Part shown: positions 32,780-42,627 of the stretch, one piece after another
Numbering within the stretch: position 1 is the first letter of the stretch
How the letters are laid out: each line of letters opens with the position of its first letter
Assembly (NCBI GenBank): GCA_963804955.1
Contig: CAWDSQ010000014.1
Span: 64,001-128,000 of the forward strand
DNA length: 64,000 bases
Source of the DNA: an uncultured delta proteobacterium
Lineage (GTDB): Bacteria; Desulfobacterota; WTBG01; CAIYCZ01; CAIRTM01
Direction of reading: 5' to 3'
Notes under the pieces: model-generated
Database searches by the model: none
What the model was told of the DNA's origin: nothing
Seen by the model: only the letters and a program-made list of their open reading frames with translations
Program-made: the position numbers and the translations under genes

Positions 32780-33061
32780 ATGATTTGTCAAACAACCAAG
32801 CAGGGCGTCGAATGCTTCTTCATGAGCAAATCGGGCTGCACCTATAACGGGGGCACCTGTGTTCAAATTATCGCCCAGTGTGAAGGCTGCGAAAAAATCA
32901 AAGATTTCCCGTCCGGCAAATTCTGCCTGGCATATCCGCAGCCCGACCTTAAGTGGAAAAACGGAAACTGCAACTTCGCCAGTCACATAAAACGCGAAGT
33001 CAAACAGGACAAAATCGTCAACGCACTCAAGGCATCCAAGAGAAAAGCTGCTGGAAAATAA
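32780..33061 (+). CDS. PxxKW-family cysteine-rich protein
   Basis: C-x8-C-x7-C-x6-C...CEGC...C..YPQPDLKW...CNFASH...NALKASKR; strong AGGAGG RBS. Confidence 0.88.
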   Translation: MICQTTKQGVECFFMSKSGCTYNGGTCVQIIAQCEGCEKIKDFPSGKFCLAYPQPDLKWKNGNCNFASHIKREVKQDKIVNALKASKRKAAGK

Positions 33062-33396: not shown

Positions 33397-34386
33397 TTAT
33401 TCAGCCATAAGCTTTTTAACTTCGGCGGTCAGGGCAGGCACGACCTTAAAAAGGTCATCGATCACGCCATAATCGCATTTGGTGAAAATAGGCGCTTCTG
33501 AATCCTTGTTGATTGCAACAATCATCTTTGAGGTTCCCATGCCGGCATAATGCTGGATTGCGCCGGAAATACCGCAGGCGATATACAGATTGGGAGAAAC
33601 GACCTTGCCTGTCTGGCCGACCTGGTCGGACAGGGGGCGCCAGCCTGCATCGACTGCCGCGCGTGATGCGCCAACTGTAGCGCCGATAACAGCTGCCAGC
33701 TCTTCGATCATTGCATAATTTTCCGGGCCCTTCATGCCGCGGCCGCCGGAGACGATGCGCTCGGCTTCGGTAAGGTCAACCTTGCCGGCTGCGGTTTTAA
33801 CGACTTCGAGGACCTTCACGCGGATATCGCCGGCTGCAAGTTCGGGGGCCACCGTAACGACTTCAGCCGTGCGGGCCGCATCAGGAGCAGCAGCCACCAG
33901 CACATTGGGCCGAAAAGACGCCATGCTGATATCGGTGTTCTGGAAAGTGACTTCAGCATAGACTTTGCCGGAATACATGGGCCGCCGCACGACAACCTTG
34001 TCGCCGTCAAGCTTAATATCGACGCAGTCGGCTGCAAGGCCGGCATTCACGCGGGCCGCAACTTTCGGCGCCAGATCCTTGCCCATTACTGTTGCGCCAA
34101 AAAACACCATGGAGGGCTGCTCCTTGGCAATAAGATCGGCAAGCGCCTTTGCATAGGCGTCGGTGGTGTACTGGCCAAGTAGGTCATGGCTCACCATATA
34201 GGCCTTGTCTGCACCATAGGGGGCAAACCTGTCGGCAAGAGCGGCTATATCTTTGCCGAGGCATACGGCAGCAAGCTGCTCGCCTTTGGCATCTGCTATT
34301 TTACGGACATTGCTCAATATTTCAAAGGTAACCTTTCTTACCTTACCGTCTTCCTGCTCGGCAAAAACCCAAATTCCTTTTCCCAT
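33397..34386 (-). CDS. etfA: Electron transfer flavoprotein alpha subunit
   Basis: IVSGGRG, GASRAAVDAGW, QVGQTGKVVSP.LYIACGISGAIQH, AINKD. Confidence 0.96.
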   Translation of the reverse strand: MGKGIWVFAEQEDGKVRKVTFEILSNVRKIADAKGEQLAAVCLGKDIAALADRFAPYGADKAYMVSHDLLGQYTTDAYAKALADLIAKEQPSMVFFGATVMGKDLAPKVAARVNAGLAADCVDIKLDGDKVVVRRPMYSGKVYAEVTFQNTDISMASFRPNVLVAAAPDAARTAEVVTVAPELAAGDIRVKVLEVVKTAAGKVDLTEAERIVSGGRGMKGPENYAMIEELAAVIGATVGASRAAVDAGWRPLSDQVGQTGKVVSPNLYIACGISGAIQHYAGMGTSKMIVAINKDSEAPIFTKCDYGVIDDLFKVVPALTAEVKKLMAE

Positions 34387-34429: not shown

Positions 34430-35230
34430 TTAGATGGCCTTGGCATCTTCGCGAAGAGCCTTGGCAAGGGCTGCCGCCTTTTCTTCAGCGCTCTCGCCCT
34501 GAATGATCTTGGCTGCCGTGCGTGCCGGAGGAAGGGTGAAATTGATGCCCTTGGTCTTTGCGCCTGCGGCGCCCGCGGTTGCTGGATCTATGCCGATATC
34601 GCCGGCCTTAACCGGGGTAAGGGGCTTCTTTTTGGCTTTCATAATGCCGGGAAGCGAGGCATAGCGGGGCTCGTTCAAGCCCTTCGGTGCGGTCAGCACT
34701 GCAGGCAGGGGCACTTCGATTATTTCTTCGCCGCCCACGATCTGGCGATTGACCTTCGCGCTCTTCTTATCGGCCGCAACTTCAACCTTTATAACGAGAG
34801 AAACATGGGGTATCCCGAGATTTTCAGCAAGAGCGACACCAACCTGGCTCTGGTCGTCATCAATTGCCTGCTTGCCGCAGAAAATCACGTCATAGTCACC
34901 AATTTTTTTGATCTGGGCTGCAAGAGCCTTTGCCGTTGCCTGGGGATCGCTGCCTTCAAAGGCCGCATCGTCAAGATGGTAGGCATCATCGGCGCCCATG
35001 GCAAGGCCTGTTCGGATAGACTCAACGCAGCGCGCCGGGCCGAGGCACACCAGCGATACCTTGCCGGCGCCCATCTTTTCCTTCATGCGCAGAGCTTCCT
35101 CAATCCCGAATTCATCATAGGGGCTGATGATAAACTTTACGCCGTCCAGAACGACATCGGTACCATCGGATTTAACCCGGATCTGTGCTTCTGTGTCAGG
35201 CACTTGTTTCATGCATACTATACTGTTCAC
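34430..35230 (-). CDS. etfB: Electron transfer flavoprotein beta subunit
   Basis: VCMKQVPDT, PYDEFGIEEAL, LAMGAD, GKQAIDDD, NEPRYASLPGIMKAKKK. Confidence 0.96.
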   Translation of the reverse strand: MNSIVCMKQVPDTEAQIRVKSDGTDVVLDGVKFIISPYDEFGIEEALRMKEKMGAGKVSLVCLGPARCVESIRTGLAMGADDAYHLDDAAFEGSDPQATAKALAAQIKKIGDYDVIFCGKQAIDDDQSQVGVALAENLGIPHVSLVIKVEVAADKKSAKVNRQIVGGEEIIEVPLPAVLTAPKGLNEPRYASLPGIMKAKKKPLTPVKAGDIGIDPATAGAAGAKTKGINFTLPPARTAAKIIQGESAEEKAAALAKALREDAKAI

Positions 35231-35304: not shown

Positions 35305-35333
35305 TTAGTAACATAGTCAATTTTAGCGGTCAA
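35305..35333 (-). promoter_or_regulatory. Putative sigma-70 promoter of etfBA
   Basis: Minus strand TTGACC-N17-TACTAA. Confidence 0.45.
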
Positions 35334-35399: not shown

Positions 35400-35620
35400 G
35401 AAGGGGGGGATTTGGCAGCCGGTCCCGGTCAATTGCTAAGGGTAACAATGAGGGGGATATTTGAGGTTGTTTTTTGTTGGGGCGAACGAAACCGGCTGCC
35501 AAAATTGTATTCACATTAATTAAAATTGAACTGTACACTTCTAAAAAAAGGGGGGGCTGGCAATCAAAATTAAGTGCTTTCAAGGGGGATACCAACATCG
35601 ATTTTTGATTGCCAGCTGCA
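35400..35620 (-). ncRNA. Candidate sigma-54-dependent C-rich small RNA(s), two tandem hairpin units
   Basis: Perfect stems 35603-35616/35556-35569 and 35491-35503/35411-35423; each loop carries UAUCCCCCU and each stem is followed by C7-UU; starts at the predicted +1 of a sigma-54 promoter. Confidence 0.6.
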
Positions 35621-35630
35621 CACTAATCTT

Positions 35631-35646
35631 TGCAATCCTTATGCCA
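35631..35646 (-). promoter_or_regulatory. Sigma-54 (-24/-12) promoter
   Basis: Minus strand TGGCAT-AAGGA-TTGCA, near-perfect consensus. Confidence 0.8.
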
Positions 35647-35753
35647 CACCAGAAGAAGAAAACTTGTGCTGGTTAACCGCTTGAAAAACTTTTCTTATTT
35701 TTTATTTTTCGAAAAAATTCTATGCAGCACACCCTCTTTTTTGCCTTAATAAA

Positions 35754-35808
35754 TTGCCAGATTGGCAAAACAGTTGAAATTTCCTAAAAGCAGAGTAAAG
35801 ATTGGCAA
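35754..35808. promoter_or_regulatory. Putative enhancer-binding-protein site (UAS)
   Basis: Palindrome TTGCCA-GAT-TGGCAA plus repeated AGATTGGCAA 40 bp away, about 110-160 bp upstream of the sigma-54 promoter. Confidence 0.5.
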
Positions 35809-35862
35809 GAGGTTATTGCTAACATGCCCGGGAAGGAGGGTTTATCATAGACGGAGAATCGC

Positions 35863-36051
35863 TAGAGCATTTATTCTTTATTTTGTAGCCATATTTTCCA
35901 TATATGGCATTCCCGTTCGTGGTGAGCTGAGTTGACGGGGTCGAACCATGAACGGAAAGTCGGCCCTTCGACAGGCTCAGGGCGAACGGATAGGAGTTTC
36001 TTTTTCGGAAAATATTTTTTTGCAGGCTACAGTATTTAGAAAAATACTCTA
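35863..36051. repeat. MITE/REP-like element (locus B)
   Basis: Terminal IR TAGAGCATTT/AAATACTCTA, inner TGTAGCC/GGCTACA, core CCGTTCGTGGTGAGC...CCCTTCGACAGGCTCAGGGCGAACGG. Confidence 0.8.
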
Positions 36052-36120
36052 AAAAACTGAGCTGCTGCGACAGGAAAATGTCAAACGGGCCACATTTCTG
36101 ACAGGCAGTCAGCTGGCGCT

Positions 36121-37530
36121 TCAGGCTTCCGGCTCATCATCGCTGTCCGGGACCTCTTCTGCATCCATCTTCCGATACAGCGTACGGGTGGAGATGCCCA
36201 GTATTTTTGAAGCGATATTTTTATTGCCTCGTGACTGTTTCAGTGTTTCCTCCATGACGATCTTTTCAATATCTTTCAGGGGAATTCTGCCGATGGGGAT
36301 ATTGAGAACCCGCAGGCCCGAGGACACATCTTCCGCGTTTTTTGATACGCTCAGTATATCCTCGGGAAGATCGGCTGGCGTAATGCATGACTCACGGGTA
36401 AGCACGACAGCCCGCTCGATGGTGTTTTCGAGCTCCCGGACATTGCCCGGCCAGGGATACTTCATGAGAACCTCCATGGCCTCCTTTGCAATGCCCTCTA
36501 TGGCTCGTCCGTTCTTGGCGCAGTACATGCGTAAAAAATAGTTTGCGAGCAGCGGGATATCGTCCTTGCGCTCCCGAAGAGCAGGCAGCTGAATATTGAT
36601 GACATTGAGCCGGTAATAGAGATCCTCCCGGAACTGCTTCTTCTCAACAAGTTTTTTAAGCTGTGCATTGGTTGCGGCAATCACCCTGACATCGGCCACA
36701 AATGTCTTCCCGCCGCCCAGCCGCTCAAACTCGCCGCTCTGCAGGACGCGCAAAAGCTTCACCTGTACGGAAGGGTTTATATCGCCGATCTCATCGAGAA
36801 AAAGCGTTCCGCCGTGAGCAAGCTCAAAGCGCCCTTCCCTCCGGCTGATGGCGCCGGTAAAAGCTCCTTTTTCATAGCCGAAAAGCTCCGCTTCAAGAAG
36901 GGTCTCCGGCAGCGCAGCGCAGCTGACCTTGACGAAATTTTTTTCACTGCGCGGGCTCAGCTGGTGAATGGCATTGGCAATCACTTCCTTGCCCACGCCG
37001 CTTTCTCCCGTAATCAGAACTGTTGCCGTGCTGGGAGCCACCTGTGCGGACAGCTCCATGACCTTGCGCATAACAAGGCTTTTGCCCACCACATTTTCAG
37101 AGCCCTGAATGTTTTTAATACGATCGTGCAAACTCTTGTTTTCAAGCACAAGCGACCGTTTTTCGAAGGCATTCTTGATGCTTTTAATCACCGTAACCTT
37201 GTTGAAGGGTTTCTGGATAAAATCAAAGGCCCCGTCCTTCATGACATCGACCGCCACATCAACCGTGCCGTGGCCCGTAATAAGAATTACCTCGATTGCG
37301 GGTGAAATTGTTTTTGCTATTTTCAACAGCTCTGCCCCGTCCACCCTGGGCATCTTGAGATCGGTCACCACCACCCCCACCTCGTTTTTCTGCAGCACGC
37401 GCACGGCATCTTCCCCATCGGCGGCAGCCAGCACTTGAAAACCCTCTTTTGACAAAATTTTTGAAAGCGCGTCCCGTATGCCCGGCGTATCGTCAACAAC
37501 CAGAACAACATTATCTCCGGAAAAATCCAC
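36121..37530 (-). CDS. Sigma-54-dependent response regulator (NtrC/AtoC family)
   Basis: REC domain, GESGVGKE, ELFGYEKGAFTGA, FLDEIG, FREDLYYRLNV, WPGNVRELEN, Fis-type HTH; GTG start after GGAGG. Confidence 0.95.
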   Translation of the reverse strand: MDFSGDNVVLVVDDTPGIRDALSKILSKEGFQVLAAADGEDAVRVLQKNEVGVVVTDLKMPRVDGAELLKIAKTISPAIEVILITGHGTVDVAVDVMKDGAFDFIQKPFNKVTVIKSIKNAFEKRSLVLENKSLHDRIKNIQGSENVVGKSLVMRKVMELSAQVAPSTATVLITGESGVGKEVIANAIHQLSPRSEKNFVKVSCAALPETLLEAELFGYEKGAFTGAISRREGRFELAHGGTLFLDEIGDINPSVQVKLLRVLQSGEFERLGGGKTFVADVRVIAATNAQLKKLVEKKQFREDLYYRLNVINIQLPALRERKDDIPLLANYFLRMYCAKNGRAIEGIAKEAMEVLMKYPWPGNVRELENTIERAVVLTRESCITPADLPEDILSVSKNAEDVSSGLRVLNIPIGRIPLKDIEKIVMEETLKQSRGNKNIASKILGISTRTLYRKMDAEEVPDSDDEPEA

Positions 37531-37738
37531 CTTGAACCTCCATTGCACCAACAGCTTTCAAGAAACTGCCGCGCTGCAGCATTCACCGAATGTCCACGCC
37601 AGATTGCCAGCTTTTCGAAAAAAATGCGGCTCCTGCTGCAGGCTCTGTCGATAAAAACGTATTGGGCGCATCCGACTGCACCCGAGCAGAGTGCCTGCAC
37701 AAGCTCCGTCCAAACCCTTAATGGTATATCCTCCAGCA

Positions 37739-39808
37739 TTAAACCGTCTCTGCCGGAAACTCATCAGCCCCATCCTGCCACACAGGCAGTCGCACCGTAA
37801 ACCGGGTGCCCTGGCCGGGCTCACTGTCGCAGAGGATCACACCTTTGTGTTCTGCAATGATGTGCTGGGTGATCGAAAGCCCAAGCCCCGTACCGCCGCT
37901 TTTCGTCGTATAAAAGGGGGTAAAAATACGCTCGAGCTGATCTGGCGGCATGCCGGAACCGGAATCGGCAAACAAAATCTCAATCCAGGGCTGCGTCAGG
38001 CGGGTGGCCACCTCTATTGTGCCGCCAGCAGGCATTGCCTCAATGGCATTGCGCGCCAGATTGAGAAAAGCGCGATGCATATGATCCTTGTCAAGTGCTG
38101 CAGCAGGCAAATTATATTCAAAGGTTGTTTTAAAAAGAATCTTGCGATGCCGGAACTCCTCCTCGAGAAACGCGAAAAGATCTTCTATCACCATGTTGAC
38201 ATCCTGCTTTGCAGGCTGGATTTTCGGAAAACGGGTGCATTCCAGATACTCCCGCAGCACCTTATGCAGGCTCTCGATCTCATTCTTGATCGTCACGATC
38301 AGTTCCTTGGCCTCAACGGCTTCCGGCGCCTGATACCCGCTGATGGCGTCATCGAGCAGGTCTATATTAAGCGTCAGCGACCCGAGCGGATTTCTGATCT
38401 CATGGGCCACCTGGGCCGACATTTTTACAATCATTGACTTGCGCTCATGCTGCAGAAGCTCACTGCGCAGGGCCATTTCGCCCGTGACGTCTTTCACATA
38501 CTCAACCACGCGCATGGTCCGGCCATCTTCGTCCTTGAGCGGAAAAGCCGTAAGATGAAAATAAAACTTTTTGCCGCCCAGAGTTGTGCTCACGCGTTCG
38601 CGAAAAACGGGCCTGCCCGTATCAAAGGCTTCATGGGCCGGGCATCCCTGGCACAGGCTGCTCTGCTGCTGAAACACCTCGTAGCAGGGCTTGCCTCTGA
38701 ACAGCTCCATGGGCTTGTTATGCCATTGGGAAATTGCCTTGTTCACCATGAGCACGCGGTAATCGCGATCAATAATGGAGATGCCATCGGTGATGCCGTC
38801 GATGACCTCGTGGCTCCAGGCTATCTCCTGAGCGGCTATGCGCTTGCGCTTTTCCTGGGCCGAAAGAAAAAACGCGCCGACTACCAGCACCGCTAAAAAG
38901 CCGCAAATAAATATCAGCGGGCCCATGAGGCTTTCCATAAGCGGCGACATCGCTTCCCGGTAGGGCGCGGCAACGCCAATGGACCAGAGCAGGCCGTTGA
39001 ATTTTATGGGGGCATAGGCTATGAGCTTTTTTGTCAGCTGCTTCTCACCGATATGCCAGCCCGTATATTCGCCTTTGCCTTCAACGCCCTTGACCATTTC
39101 CCGGTCTATCAGGGTCTCAAGATTGAAAGAGGTGTTTTCCGGCCAAAGCTCTTTGAGCAGCCCGGCAACTTTTTTCCCCTCCATGGCTTTATTGGGATGG
39201 GCAAGCAGAACGCCCCGGTTGTCGATCATCCAGGCATAGCCGGTTTTCCCCGATTTTATGGGATAAATAAATTCATCCTTGAGCGCCGAAAAATTGACCA
39301 GGCAGCACATCCACTGGCTTTTGCCTCGCACCGGCACCCCCATGATAAATGACCTGCCGCCATTGCCGGAGGTGGCTTCAATAAAATCAGAAATAAAGAC
39401 CTGCTGTTGCGCGGATACAGCCTGAAATAAAAGCTTCTGAAGATTAGCCTGATCAAAATGTGCAGTAAACTGCGGCGGGTGCATATGGATTATGCCGCCG
39501 TCCTGAGAAATCAGAAAAAGCGCCTGCATGAGCTGCGGCTGGCGCAAAAAAAACGGGGCAAGGGTTTTGGGGTCGGGATACAGGCCGTAGGTGTCTGCTG
39601 CCGTGTTCAGGCTTATCTGTATGCCCTGTATGAAATTTTCAATACCGCGGGCTGACTCCCGTACCAGAAAAAGCTGCTGCCGGTTGAAGGCTTCGGCAGT
39701 ATTGCTGACAATCACATGCCGGCTCACAAACGCCACGGCTAGCACGCCCGCAATAACCACTGCGGCAATGACCCATATTCTTGCAACAGAAGGCACATAT
39801 CCCTTCAT
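37739..39808 (-). CDS. Cache-PAS sensor histidine kinase
   Basis: Two TM helices flanking a Cache domain (GKTGYAWMIDNRG.LLAHP), PAS, VAHEIRNPL, NAIEAM, DSGSG, GTGLGL. Confidence 0.92.
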   Translation of the reverse strand: MKGYVPSVARIWVIAAVVIAGVLAVAFVSRHVIVSNTAEAFNRQQLFLVRESARGIENFIQGIQISLNTAADTYGLYPDPKTLAPFFLRQPQLMQALFLISQDGGIIHMHPPQFTAHFDQANLQKLLFQAVSAQQQVFISDFIEATSGNGGRSFIMGVPVRGKSQWMCCLVNFSALKDEFIYPIKSGKTGYAWMIDNRGVLLAHPNKAMEGKKVAGLLKELWPENTSFNLETLIDREMVKGVEGKGEYTGWHIGEKQLTKKLIAYAPIKFNGLLWSIGVAAPYREAMSPLMESLMGPLIFICGFLAVLVVGAFFLSAQEKRKRIAAQEIAWSHEVIDGITDGISIIDRDYRVLMVNKAISQWHNKPMELFRGKPCYEVFQQQSSLCQGCPAHEAFDTGRPVFRERVSTTLGGKKFYFHLTAFPLKDEDGRTMRVVEYVKDVTGEMALRSELLQHERKSMIVKMSAQVAHEIRNPLGSLTLNIDLLDDAISGYQAPEAVEAKELIVTIKNEIESLHKVLREYLECTRFPKIQPAKQDVNMVIEDLFAFLEEEFRHRKILFKTTFEYNLPAAALDKDHMHRAFLNLARNAIEAMPAGGTIEVATRLTQPWIEILFADSGSGMPPDQLERIFTPFYTTKSGGTGLGLSITQHIIAEHKGVILCDSEPGQGTRFTVRLPVWQDGADEFPAETV

Positions 39809-39976: not shown

Positions 39977-41950
39977 TTACTGCTTGTTCTTTTTCAGATC
40001 TTCCACAACAGCGGGATCGGCCAGCGTTGAGGTATCGCCCATATCGTCAAACTGACCGGCGGCGATCTTCTTCAGGATGCGGCGCATGATCTTGCCGGAG
40101 CGGGTCTTCGGGAGGCCATCCGCCCACTGAATCTTGTCGGGCGTGGCGATGGGGCCGATTTCCTTGCGCACATGGGCGACCAGCTCCTTCTTCAGAGCAT
40201 CGGTCTTCTCGACGCCCACGTTCAGGGTGACATAGGCATAGATGCCTTCGCCCTTGATCTCATGGGGAAAGCCGACAACCGCGGCTTCGGCAACCTTCGG
40301 GTGAGCAACCAGCGCGCTTTCGACTTCGGCGGTACCCATGCGGTGGCCGGAAACATTGATAACGTCGTCCAGACGGCCCATGAGGAAGTAGTCGCCGTCG
40401 GCATCCCTGCGGGCGCCGTCGCCGGTGTAGTACTTGCCCGGGAACTGGGTGAAATAGGTATCTTTGAACCGCTGATGATCGCCGTACACAGTGCGCATCA
40501 TGCCGGGCCATGCCTTCTCAACGCAGAGATAGCCGCCTTCATTCACATCGGCTTCGCTCTTGCCGTCTTCGCGCAGAATAACGGGCTTGATGCCGAAGAA
40601 GGGGCGGTTGGCTGAGCCGGGCTTGATCTTCATGGCGCCGGGGATCGGGGTGATAAGGAATCCGCCGGTCTCGGTCTGCCAGTAGGTGTCGACGATCGGG
40701 CAGCGGCCTCCGCCGATTTTGTTGTAGTACCACATCCATGCTTCGGGATTGATGGGCTCGCCCACGGTGCCGAGAATGCGGAGGCTGGAAAGATCGATGC
40801 CTTCAACCCACTGGTCGCCCTGTGCGGCAATGGCGCGGATGGCGGTGGGGGCGGTGTAGAACTGGTTGACCTTGTACTTCTCGACGATCTTCCAGAAGCG
40901 TGAATAATCAGGATAGCTCGGTACGCCTTCAAACATAACGCTGGCTGCGCCGTTTGCAAGGGGGCCGTAGACGATATAGCTGTGGCCGGTGACCCAGCCG
41001 ATGTCGGCCGTGCACCAGAAGGTGTCTTCTTCCTTCAGGTCAAAAACATACTTCAGCGTGGTTGCGGCATACAGCAGATAGCCTGCCGTGGTGTGGCAGG
41101 CGCCCTTGGGCTGGCCGGTGGAGCCGGAGGTGTACAGAATAAAGAGAGGATCTTCCGCGTCCATCCACTCGGGCTCGCAATATGCAGGCAGGCCCTTGGC
41201 ATTCATTTCCTCATTCCACCAGATATCGCGGCCTTCTTTCATGGTGACGGCTGCGCCCGTGCGCTTTACGATAATCGAGGTCTTTACCGTGGGGCAGGAT
41301 TCCAGTGCCTTGTCGGCATTGCCCTTCAGGTCGACCGACTTGCCGGAGCGGTAGGAAGCGTCGCTGGTGATGAGCACCGTTGCTTCGGAGCCCTGAATTC
41401 TGTCGCGGAGCGCGTCTGCGCTGAAGCCGCCGAAGACGATGGCATGGATGGCGCCGATGCGTGCGCAGGCAAGCATGGCGATGGGAAGCTCGGGAATCAT
41501 GGGCAGATAGATAACAACGCGGTCGCCCTTCTTGACGCCCTGTTTCTTGAGCACATTGGCGAACTTGTTCACTTCCGTGTACAGTTCGATATAGGTATAG
41601 GTGCGTGCTTCATCAACGGGCTCGCCCTGCCACATGAGAGCGGCCTTGTTCTTGCGGGCCGTCTTGATGTGCCGGTCAAGGCAGTTGTAGGAGACGTTCA
41701 GCTTGCCGCCCTTGAACCAGGCGATATTTGCTTCCGTAAGATCGGCCTCAACAACCTTGTCCCACTTTTTGAAAAACTCGATGTTCTCGTCTGCCATTTT
41801 GGCCCAGAATGTATCGGGGCTTTCAATAGACTCTTTGTACATTGCCTCGTACTGGGCCATGCTCTTGATGTGGGCCTTCTCGGCCAGTTCCTTGGGAACG
41901 TCGAAAACTTTTCCCAGCTGTGCAAGTGATTGCATTTTCTGTTCTGCCAT
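39977..41950 (-). CDS. acs: Acetyl-CoA synthetase (AMP-forming)
   Basis: [63 protein letters not shown]. Confidence 0.97.
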
Positions 41951-42062: not shown

Positions 42063-42078
42063 ATCAAATAGTATGCCA
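42063..42078 (-). promoter_or_regulatory. Putative sigma-54 promoter of acs
   Basis: Minus strand TGGCAT-ACTAT-TTGAT (GA instead of GC at -12). Confidence 0.5.
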
Positions 42079-42627
42079 TATGTTAAAGGGGGCATCAAAG
42101 CGTGACAATTGAGAATTTAGAATGTTATTTCATGGAGTTCCGTTTGTCAATAGAAAACCTATCAACAAAAAAATTTTGTCACTTTGTCACACTGCCGTCC
42201 TGTTCCGAGTATTTTTTTTGGTGAAATCCGACAAAAACTTTAACTACAACACAGCCAGGGCCTGATAAAGCTCTAGTGACATTCTGGCAGCAAGAATACT
42301 GTTTATCCTTTTAAAGCTATGTGATAACACGGGTGCACCAACGTATAAAAATATGCACAACTTCGTATCAAACGGCTCATGCTTTGGTTATACACTATAT
42401 AATTTTACTTCACTTATTGTATTCCCTGCCACCCCGTTCGCCAATGCCGGCCAAGCTCGTCCGCAACAACTTTGAGATAAAATTTTTTATGGCTTTATTT
42501 TTGCTTAAATAATAGGCTACACTCTGAATAGTTTTGCCGGCAGACTGACTGCGCGGCCCTAATGGTATCGATTTACATGGCGCCCATTCCAGGGGCATCA
42601 TGTGCTACACACCAATGGAGAAGGTTC

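Follow-up and report, generated by a model that had tools for sequence, protein, structure and literature searches.

Pxr (RF01812) of Myxococcus is a sigma-54-dependent small RNA whose gene lies directly behind those of a kinase and an enhancer-binding regulator (pxrK-pxrR-pxr), and an exposed C run is seen in the Pxr loci. As far as the cited portions of the reports go, Pxr has tandem paralogues, its host lacks hfq, and a conserved stem is needed for the RNA to accumulate (PMC5684412, PMC5568312). In Pseudomonadaceae, a carbon-related two-component system, CbrAB, has an RNA with a sigma-54 promoter (CrcZ/CrcY) just downstream, and CrcZ titrates Hfq/Crc according to the section cited (PMC8871633). 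Decoys of the CsrB/Rsm type act on CsrA and carry repeated GGA loops. Several unpaired C-rich patches are typical of RoxS and FsrA (Bacillus), 6C (Actinobacteria) and cuckoo/CcsR (Alphaproteobacteria); in these RNAs, which are not known to depend on sigma-54, the patches are located in short hairpin loops or linkers. In the excerpts cited, RoxS and FsrA pair with their targets via C-rich regions, those of RoxS including acsA and EtfA (PMC8216469). 6C is reported to act without chaperones (PMC6486639). Finally, the two-component system CrbS/R (MxtR/ErdR), which has an SLC5-type sensor, governs acs and a putative acetate transporter (PMC5436829, PMC8871633); the cited excerpts mention no small RNA in its regulon.

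A locus that shares features with several of these systems lies in the window, i.e. the whole stretch of 64,000 nucleotides analysed here, which comes from an uncultured delta proteobacterium (genome G000). In the direction of transcription, it comprises the following features:

Positions 39977-41950, minus strand: acs, acetyl-CoA synthetase (TIGR02188 above cut-off).
Positions 37739-39808, minus strand: sensor kinase with dCache-like (score 41.3, just below the cut-off of 45), PAS, HisKA and HATPase domains.
Positions 36121-37551, minus strand: sigma-54 enhancer-binding response regulator with receiver, AAA+ and Fis-type HTH domains, the predicted activator.
Positions 35755-35767: palindromic enhancer, a perfect 13-bp site of two 5-bp half-sites and a 3-bp spacer, the predicted activator site.
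Positions 35674-35686, minus strand: IHF-like site between enhancer and promoter (regex match).
Positions 35631-35646, minus strand: sigma-54 -24/-12 promoter, read in the sequence and kept in RNA-bearing relatives.
Positions 35543-35616, minus strand: unit 1 of the RNA, with a 14-bp closing helix, a 33-nt loop with one C5 cluster, and a C then U tail.
Positions 35401-35503, minus strand: unit 2, the conserved core, with a 13-17-bp closing helix, an open loop of ~60 nt and a C-rich 3' tail.
Positions 35305-35333, minus strand: sigma-70-like promoter of etfBA, a -35/-10 pair between RNA and etfB (regex match only).
Positions 34430-35230, minus strand: etfB, which follows the RNA in 13/13 RNA-bearing genomes.
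Positions 33397-34386, minus strand: etfA, after etfB.

A small, cysteine-rich DUF6811 gene (32780-33061) converges on etfA.

An earlier, sequence-only reading of this DNA had proposed a tandem pair of C-rich hairpin RNAs behind a sigma-54 box, and most of its anatomy is borne out. The box is present on the minus strand at 35646-35631, standard sigma-54 spacing would put the +1 of the RNA at about 35620, and rpoN is found in the genome. Both perfect stems that it described, of 14 and 13 bp, are in place. In unit 1, positions 35616-35603 pair with 35569-35556; of the C7-U7 said to follow, the U7 (35549-35543) is there, and the C7 counts in the last C of the stem, which leaves six free. Unit 2, about 105 nt in length, is closed by pairing of 35503-35491 with 35423-35411, or by 17 pairs if the helix is taken to include three G·U, and its 3' side reads one U, then the predicted C7 and UU (35409-35401). 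Its loop contains C clusters at 35482-35479, 35466-35463, 35456-35452 and 35442-35440. The 9-nt motif described as common to both loops occurs at 35591-35583 in unit 1 and at 35459-35451 in unit 2; it is not special alone, with 47 copies in the genome, many of them in an unrelated dispersed repeat. This second dispersed repeat family of the genome, found on many contigs, has paired G and C runs and holds many copies of the motif.

Folding z-scores are -4.3 (unit 1) and -5.6 (unit 2) on the minus strand, where none of 200 shuffles is as good, and -3.5 and -2.3 on the plus strand. A plus-strand reading was rejected on these weaker scores and on the asymmetry between G·U and A·C described below. 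An open reading frame of 91 codons (35598-35323) overlaps the RNA region; the region is taken to be non-coding, judging from gaps of variable length in alignment A2 and from the G-poor sequence. The element matches no described family when checked against Rfam 15, as the sequence-only reading had advised: the window yields no match at gathering threshold, and the best E value of a relaxed scan is 0.18. A genome-wide dispersed repeat, the outcome named beforehand as fatal to the proposal, was likewise rejected, neither blastn nor the covariance model finding a second copy of the two-unit region in the genome of the window.

By DNA search of relatives and by covariance model, 13 of the order's 21 genomes each have a single unit-2 locus; the model was built from 11 sequences, and 10 of the 13 positive genomes contributed training sequences. 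Clearly independent matches (58 bits) are those of G010 and G015. In G005, G009 and G014, the regulator-etfB junction is kept, and promoter and RNA are both absent. G012 (locus L046) keeps promoter and enhancer, followed by a divergent hairpin with two short C runs and no model score, the RNA having been replaced by, or having decayed to, a different hairpin. G002, G003, G004 and G016 are uninformative on loss of the RNA, because the orthologous etfB was not found in their assemblies. Outside the order, the best unit-2 matches have E values of 0.006 (21 other genomes of the class) and 0.01 (a 151-genome sample of the phylum) and were treated as noise. A metagenome scan of 80 loci recovered one close relative of the kinase, at a locus that ends before the RNA; among the loci listed for kinase relatives at ~30% identity (family f48, six genomes; L102-L107), none has a promoter plus RNA after the regulator.

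In syntenic regions of the relatives, where the sequence-only reading had advised looking for covariation, the closing helix covaries: in 11 sequences, 92.5% of 187 cells are paired, with two-sided change at 10 of 17 pairs. None of 500 shuffles matches the paired fraction or the covariation score, although such shuffle tests are inflated by related sequences; slid registers give 17-44%, and RNAalifold returns the same helix. Across 13 genomes and 13 pairs, every one of the 169 cells is paired when read on the sigma-54 strand, 157 as Watson-Crick and 12 as G·U, with 0 A·C; the presence of G·U without A·C fixes the strand, favours an RNA over a DNA palindrome and is less easily explained away than the shuffle results. 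It would be very surprising if the units were instead inverted repeats at the DNA level or decayed ends of mobile elements, with no function as RNA. Dispersed palindromic repeats do occur in the genome, one of them 200 bp upstream, and the helix ends resemble the enhancer half-site; set against this are the single locus per genome, the one-strand G·U pattern, the conserved loop sequence and a place behind the promoter that is fixed across two families.

The loop comprises 54-75 nt in the 13 genomes, with 13-22 C versus 2-8 G. Four C clusters recur in it at almost constant intervals, except that G008 and, by pattern matching, G001 have three; the clusters are predicted to be largely unpaired (mostly 0.77-1.0; four clusters at 0.53-0.71). 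Clusters 2, 3 and 4 stand 8-11 and 13-15 nt apart, nearly fixed distances, despite varying linkers, and the spacing is kept even in G010, G015 and G008, where the linkers deviate; ahead of cluster 3, most genomes of two families share a near-identical linker. The pyrimidine tail after the helix is C-rich in 12/13 genomes and U-rich in G017, and a canonical terminator is lacking, most genomes having C residues between helix and U run. The unit-2 model gives weak scores for unit 1 in six loci including the window (21.8 bits, E 0.009, a rough value), and a long closed helix is found at +1 to +11 ahead of unit 2 in 9/13 cases, counting locus L082. The proposed structural duplication thereby gains support, on a weak score. 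Because G008 and G011 are without unit 1 and have unit 2 directly behind the promoter, unit 1 is most plausibly an optional, degenerate duplicate of unit 2. Of the sRNA pair originally envisaged, an undescribed conserved RNA stands, and the obligate pair does not. Whatever its mechanism, the element is very probably a functional RNA under sigma-54 control. In a freshwater metatranscriptome (run X1), a 170-nt contig matches 35425-35516 with one mismatch in 92 nt and is the best long piece among those listed (8 of 346); the kinase gene is uncovered. The contig is a weak hint of expression, because contigs show no strand, ends or level and the library may hold DNA. Runs X2-X4 leave the RNA uncovered.

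How far does the likeness to Pxr extend? Both RNAs lie behind a kinase and a sigma-54 activator, both expose C residues and both have tandem copies. Pxr consists of three consecutive hairpins, the last with a U run, whereas in the window RNA one long-range helix closes a 54-75-nt open loop. PxrK matches the window kinase at 34% over residues 446-675 (the kinase core) only, PxrR matches the regulator at 40-42% with a different HTH (two loci compared), and the palindrome upstream of Pxr loci differs from the 13-bp enhancer. The Pxr covariance model, which scores above cut-off in 7 of 121 Myxococcota as a positive control, has no match in the genome of the window and none in an E-value scan of the region. 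Membership was rejected, with fold, kinase, enhancer site and covariance model all in disagreement. The "Pxr-like logic" claimed from the sequence thus survives as a layout and fails as a family assignment; since fold, kinase and enhancer site differ, the likeness is one of logic only. As the two systems are not orthologous, modules of kinase, sigma-54 activator and sRNA seem to have arisen more than once in the former Deltaproteobacteria without Hfq. In three Myxococcota (G543, G484, G524; loci L270, L271, L275), Pxr-like RNAs with intact C run score 48-51 bits, under the Rfam cut-off; the family seems wider than its threshold admits.

The other systems differ as well. CrcZ titrates Hfq in its host, whereas here none of 42 genomes of the class, which are incomplete, has an Hfq above cut-off; the CbrAB kinase has an SLC5 input and the window kinase a Cache-like one; and no Rfam match ties the window RNA to CrcZ or to the group of RoxS, FsrA, 6C and cuckoo/CcsR. 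The window RNA resembles this group in its C-rich patches, its pairing being putative. Unlike CsrB/Rsm decoys, it has a loop that is G-poor on the transcribed strand, and neither CsrA nor ProQ has a match in the genome of the window (one genome, 87% complete), in which rho and KhpA-like and KhpB-like KH genes are present. Compared with CrbS/R, the locus combines a Cache-like kinase with a sigma-54 activator, and its predicted regulon includes an RNA. Weak Hfq-like matches below the cut-off occur in genus g7 only (G010, G015 and G016), in frames of 163-241 aa.

Acetate is a hub metabolite of anaerobic food webs. The sequence-only reading had suspected that the adjacent kinase/regulator pair controls the RNA and that the module is linked to acetate metabolism; both are supported, control by the pair as probable, and the link to acetate gains from the distribution of the enhancer. 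For site calls, we used sigma-54, IHF and sigma-70 consensus sequences that we take to be the standard ones. All 23 promoters examined have the 13-bp site upstream at 7/8 or better, 19 of them in perfect form; it stands at nominal -139 to -143 in 9/14 loci of the order, and IHF-like regex matches fall at nominal -64 to -74 in 8/23 promoters. As background, 0.27% of 3000 intergenic windows contain a perfect site. The motif was derived from the RNA loci, and its occurrence elsewhere is therefore the independent test. A relaxed scan of the genome of the window returns exactly two arrangements of enhancer plus sigma-54 promoter, that of the RNA and that of acs:

Positions 42065-42289, minus strand: acs promoter, with perfect enhancer sites at 42289-42277 and 42189-42177 and a sigma-54-like box at 42078-42065 that has a variant -12 element.

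As the kinase and regulator genes lie behind acs, the system may autoregulate. In 23 genomes, a strict enhancer-plus-promoter pattern has 15 matches versus 0 for the reversed control. Seven are RNA promoters; the eight others are acs (twice), a DUF485/ActP-like acetate permease operon (twice) and four single genes (a family-III CoA transferase, a formate dehydrogenase subunit, a NuoE/F-like gene and one gene of no annotation). Among the acs upstream regions listed, all seven distinct ones carry a perfect site, five of them with a sigma-54-like box. The HTH of the regulator is conserved across the two classes that share the enhancer site (see below). From these site patterns, we infer that the adjacent regulator activates a regulon of acetate uptake and activation that includes the RNA, and the proposed link to acetate metabolism is backed by the sites common to RNA, acs and actP. 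In the window, positions 35858-36057 are occupied by a ~200-bp dispersed repeat with inverted arms (11 other matches in the genome, many in the genus), which may have ousted the second enhancer site that relatives carry at this place.

The analysis yields a well-supported RNA family, a predicted enhancer sequence for the activator and, as members of a small regulon that is itself predicted, acs, actP and the RNA. Literature searches on sRNAs and sigma-54 control in Desulfobacterota turned up neither the RNA nor the regulon, though supplements of large motif surveys could list the RNA. This is apparently an undescribed RNA family that is confined to one uncultured order and would belong to a sigma-54 acetate regulon predicted here; the uncultured hosts limit immediate testing.

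The module could operate in the following manner, which we put forward as the leading but tentative view: the conserved sigma-54 RNA would be a trans-acting sRNA that pairs via its C clusters independently of Hfq. The neighbouring kinase/regulator pair, on a signal that is probably acetate or a related short acid, would switch on the RNA together with acs, the adjacent regulator binding to the 13-bp site. Both units would be carried by one transcript of ~220 nt, which might be processed to products of about 75 and 105 nt, each shielded by its terminal helix. The unpaired C clusters may then serve as pairing seeds on G-rich ribosome-binding sites and so turn down other mRNAs in trans, without Hfq. 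Tandem duplication fits a trans-acting RNA, by analogy with the Pxr paralogues as described in the cited section (PMC5568312). Pairing with Shine-Dalgarno sites, as proposed in the sequence-only reading, gains no support from target prediction, which does no better with the real loop than with shuffled ones and whose two top candidates are not conserved. In a ranking by contiguous helices, pairing below -18 kcal/mol is predicted for 17 of 2925 start regions versus 1-17 for six shuffled loops, i.e. without excess; as targets of the unit-2 loop, etfB comes 1121st and acs 1671st of 3573. Whole-loop duplex ranking is dominated by gapped duplexes, and the genes come from a home-made caller, some of whose starts are wrong. 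Two of five candidates were followed in relatives, with a possible shift of register in rows at contig edges: a cyclophilin-like gene beat all 40 shuffles in 3/11 RNA-bearing genomes, and gatC came close to the top in 1/8 genomes.

Varying linkers at held spacing suit the binding of a protein. The closed helix could present a ring of evenly spaced C clusters that titrates an RNA-binding protein, much as CrcZ titrates Hfq/Crc, the candidates being KhpA/KhpB or Rho. We regard such a protein decoy as possible, though rather doubtful. It would account for the near-fixed spacing of clusters 2, 3 and 4 amid changing linkers and for a duplication that adds sites; the shuffle-controlled search, with its two candidates followed across relatives, found no mRNA target; genes for all the candidate proteins exist in the genome of the window; and CrcZ, in the section cited, has the same layout of kinase, regulator, sigma-54 promoter and RNA (PMC8871633). 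Yet the proteins known to be titrated, Hfq and CsrA, were not found in the searches described above, and the near-identical linker before cluster 3 in two families suits a pairing seed as well.

Both of these readings place the action of the RNA in trans. It is unlikely that the RNA is instead a cis-acting leader of etfBA, in which the sigma-54 promoter would add acetate-dependent transcription and the C-rich, G-poor loop would be a Rho-loading site or an attenuator gating read-through. The synteny is suggestive: etfBA comes next in every RNA-bearing genome, and in G010 and G015, where kinase and regulator lie elsewhere, the module remained with etfBA, these being the two genomes in which no sigma-70-like site was found before etfB. 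The lack of a canonical terminator and the presence of rho would suit a leader, too, and the loop composition matches a description of Rho sites as C>G; the same account, as cited, calls C>G regions very common and poor predictors (PMC6144790). On the other hand, 11 of the 13 genomes have a sigma-70-like site between RNA and etfB, a regex match that supports the separate etfB promoter noted in the sequence-only reading, and the distance from RNA to etfB varies from 140 to 379 nt. By eye, a similar site is also present in the RNA-less G005, G009 and G014; these three genomes have lost promoter and RNA and retain etfBA, which therefore does not need the module.

A second class bears on the same question. 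In its family f42, 13 sampled genomes have orthologous kinases, and in 12 of them, an enhancer laid out in the same way and a sigma-54-like promoter are followed by a different RNA of about 105 nt:

L050:4111-4234, L051:7384-7507 and homologues: second-class RNA (alignment A4, model R2).

This RNA has a 16-bp covarying closing helix, a near-invariant inner hairpin, a C-rich, anti-SD-like single strand and a U run. It has no Rfam match, and homology with the window RNA was not detected (unit-2 model R1 run on the f42 loci; R2 on the genome of the window only). The order of genes is RNA, stand-alone receiver gene, acs. That a different RNA precedes different genes would suit leaders acting in cis, but the second-class RNA is still present where the downstream receiver gene was not found (G238, and G393, which has an assembly gap there). 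In G179 and G114, its module lies apart from kinase and regulator, as does the window module in G010 and G015; both rearrangements left the RNA with its downstream genes, which is compatible with a cis role, two events being too few to decide. With its strongly conserved loop and the next gene so close by, the second-class RNA looks like either a riboswitch-like leader or a separate sRNA. A wider scheme, which we consider improbable, would unite these observations: an acetate regulon of two uncultured Desulfobacterota classes would couple actP and acs to a post-transcriptional arm, a different end-closed RNA having been recruited in each class behind the same enhancer, here as a C-cluster ring titrating Rho or KhpA/B. 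If true, such a ring would represent a novel type of decoy RNA and provide Hfq-free catabolite control in anaerobes.

The stand-alone receiver protein of the second class (L050:4297-4788 and homologues) comprises ~160 aa and is 42-49% identical to the receiver region of the activator; it could act as a phosphate sink or a feedback brake.
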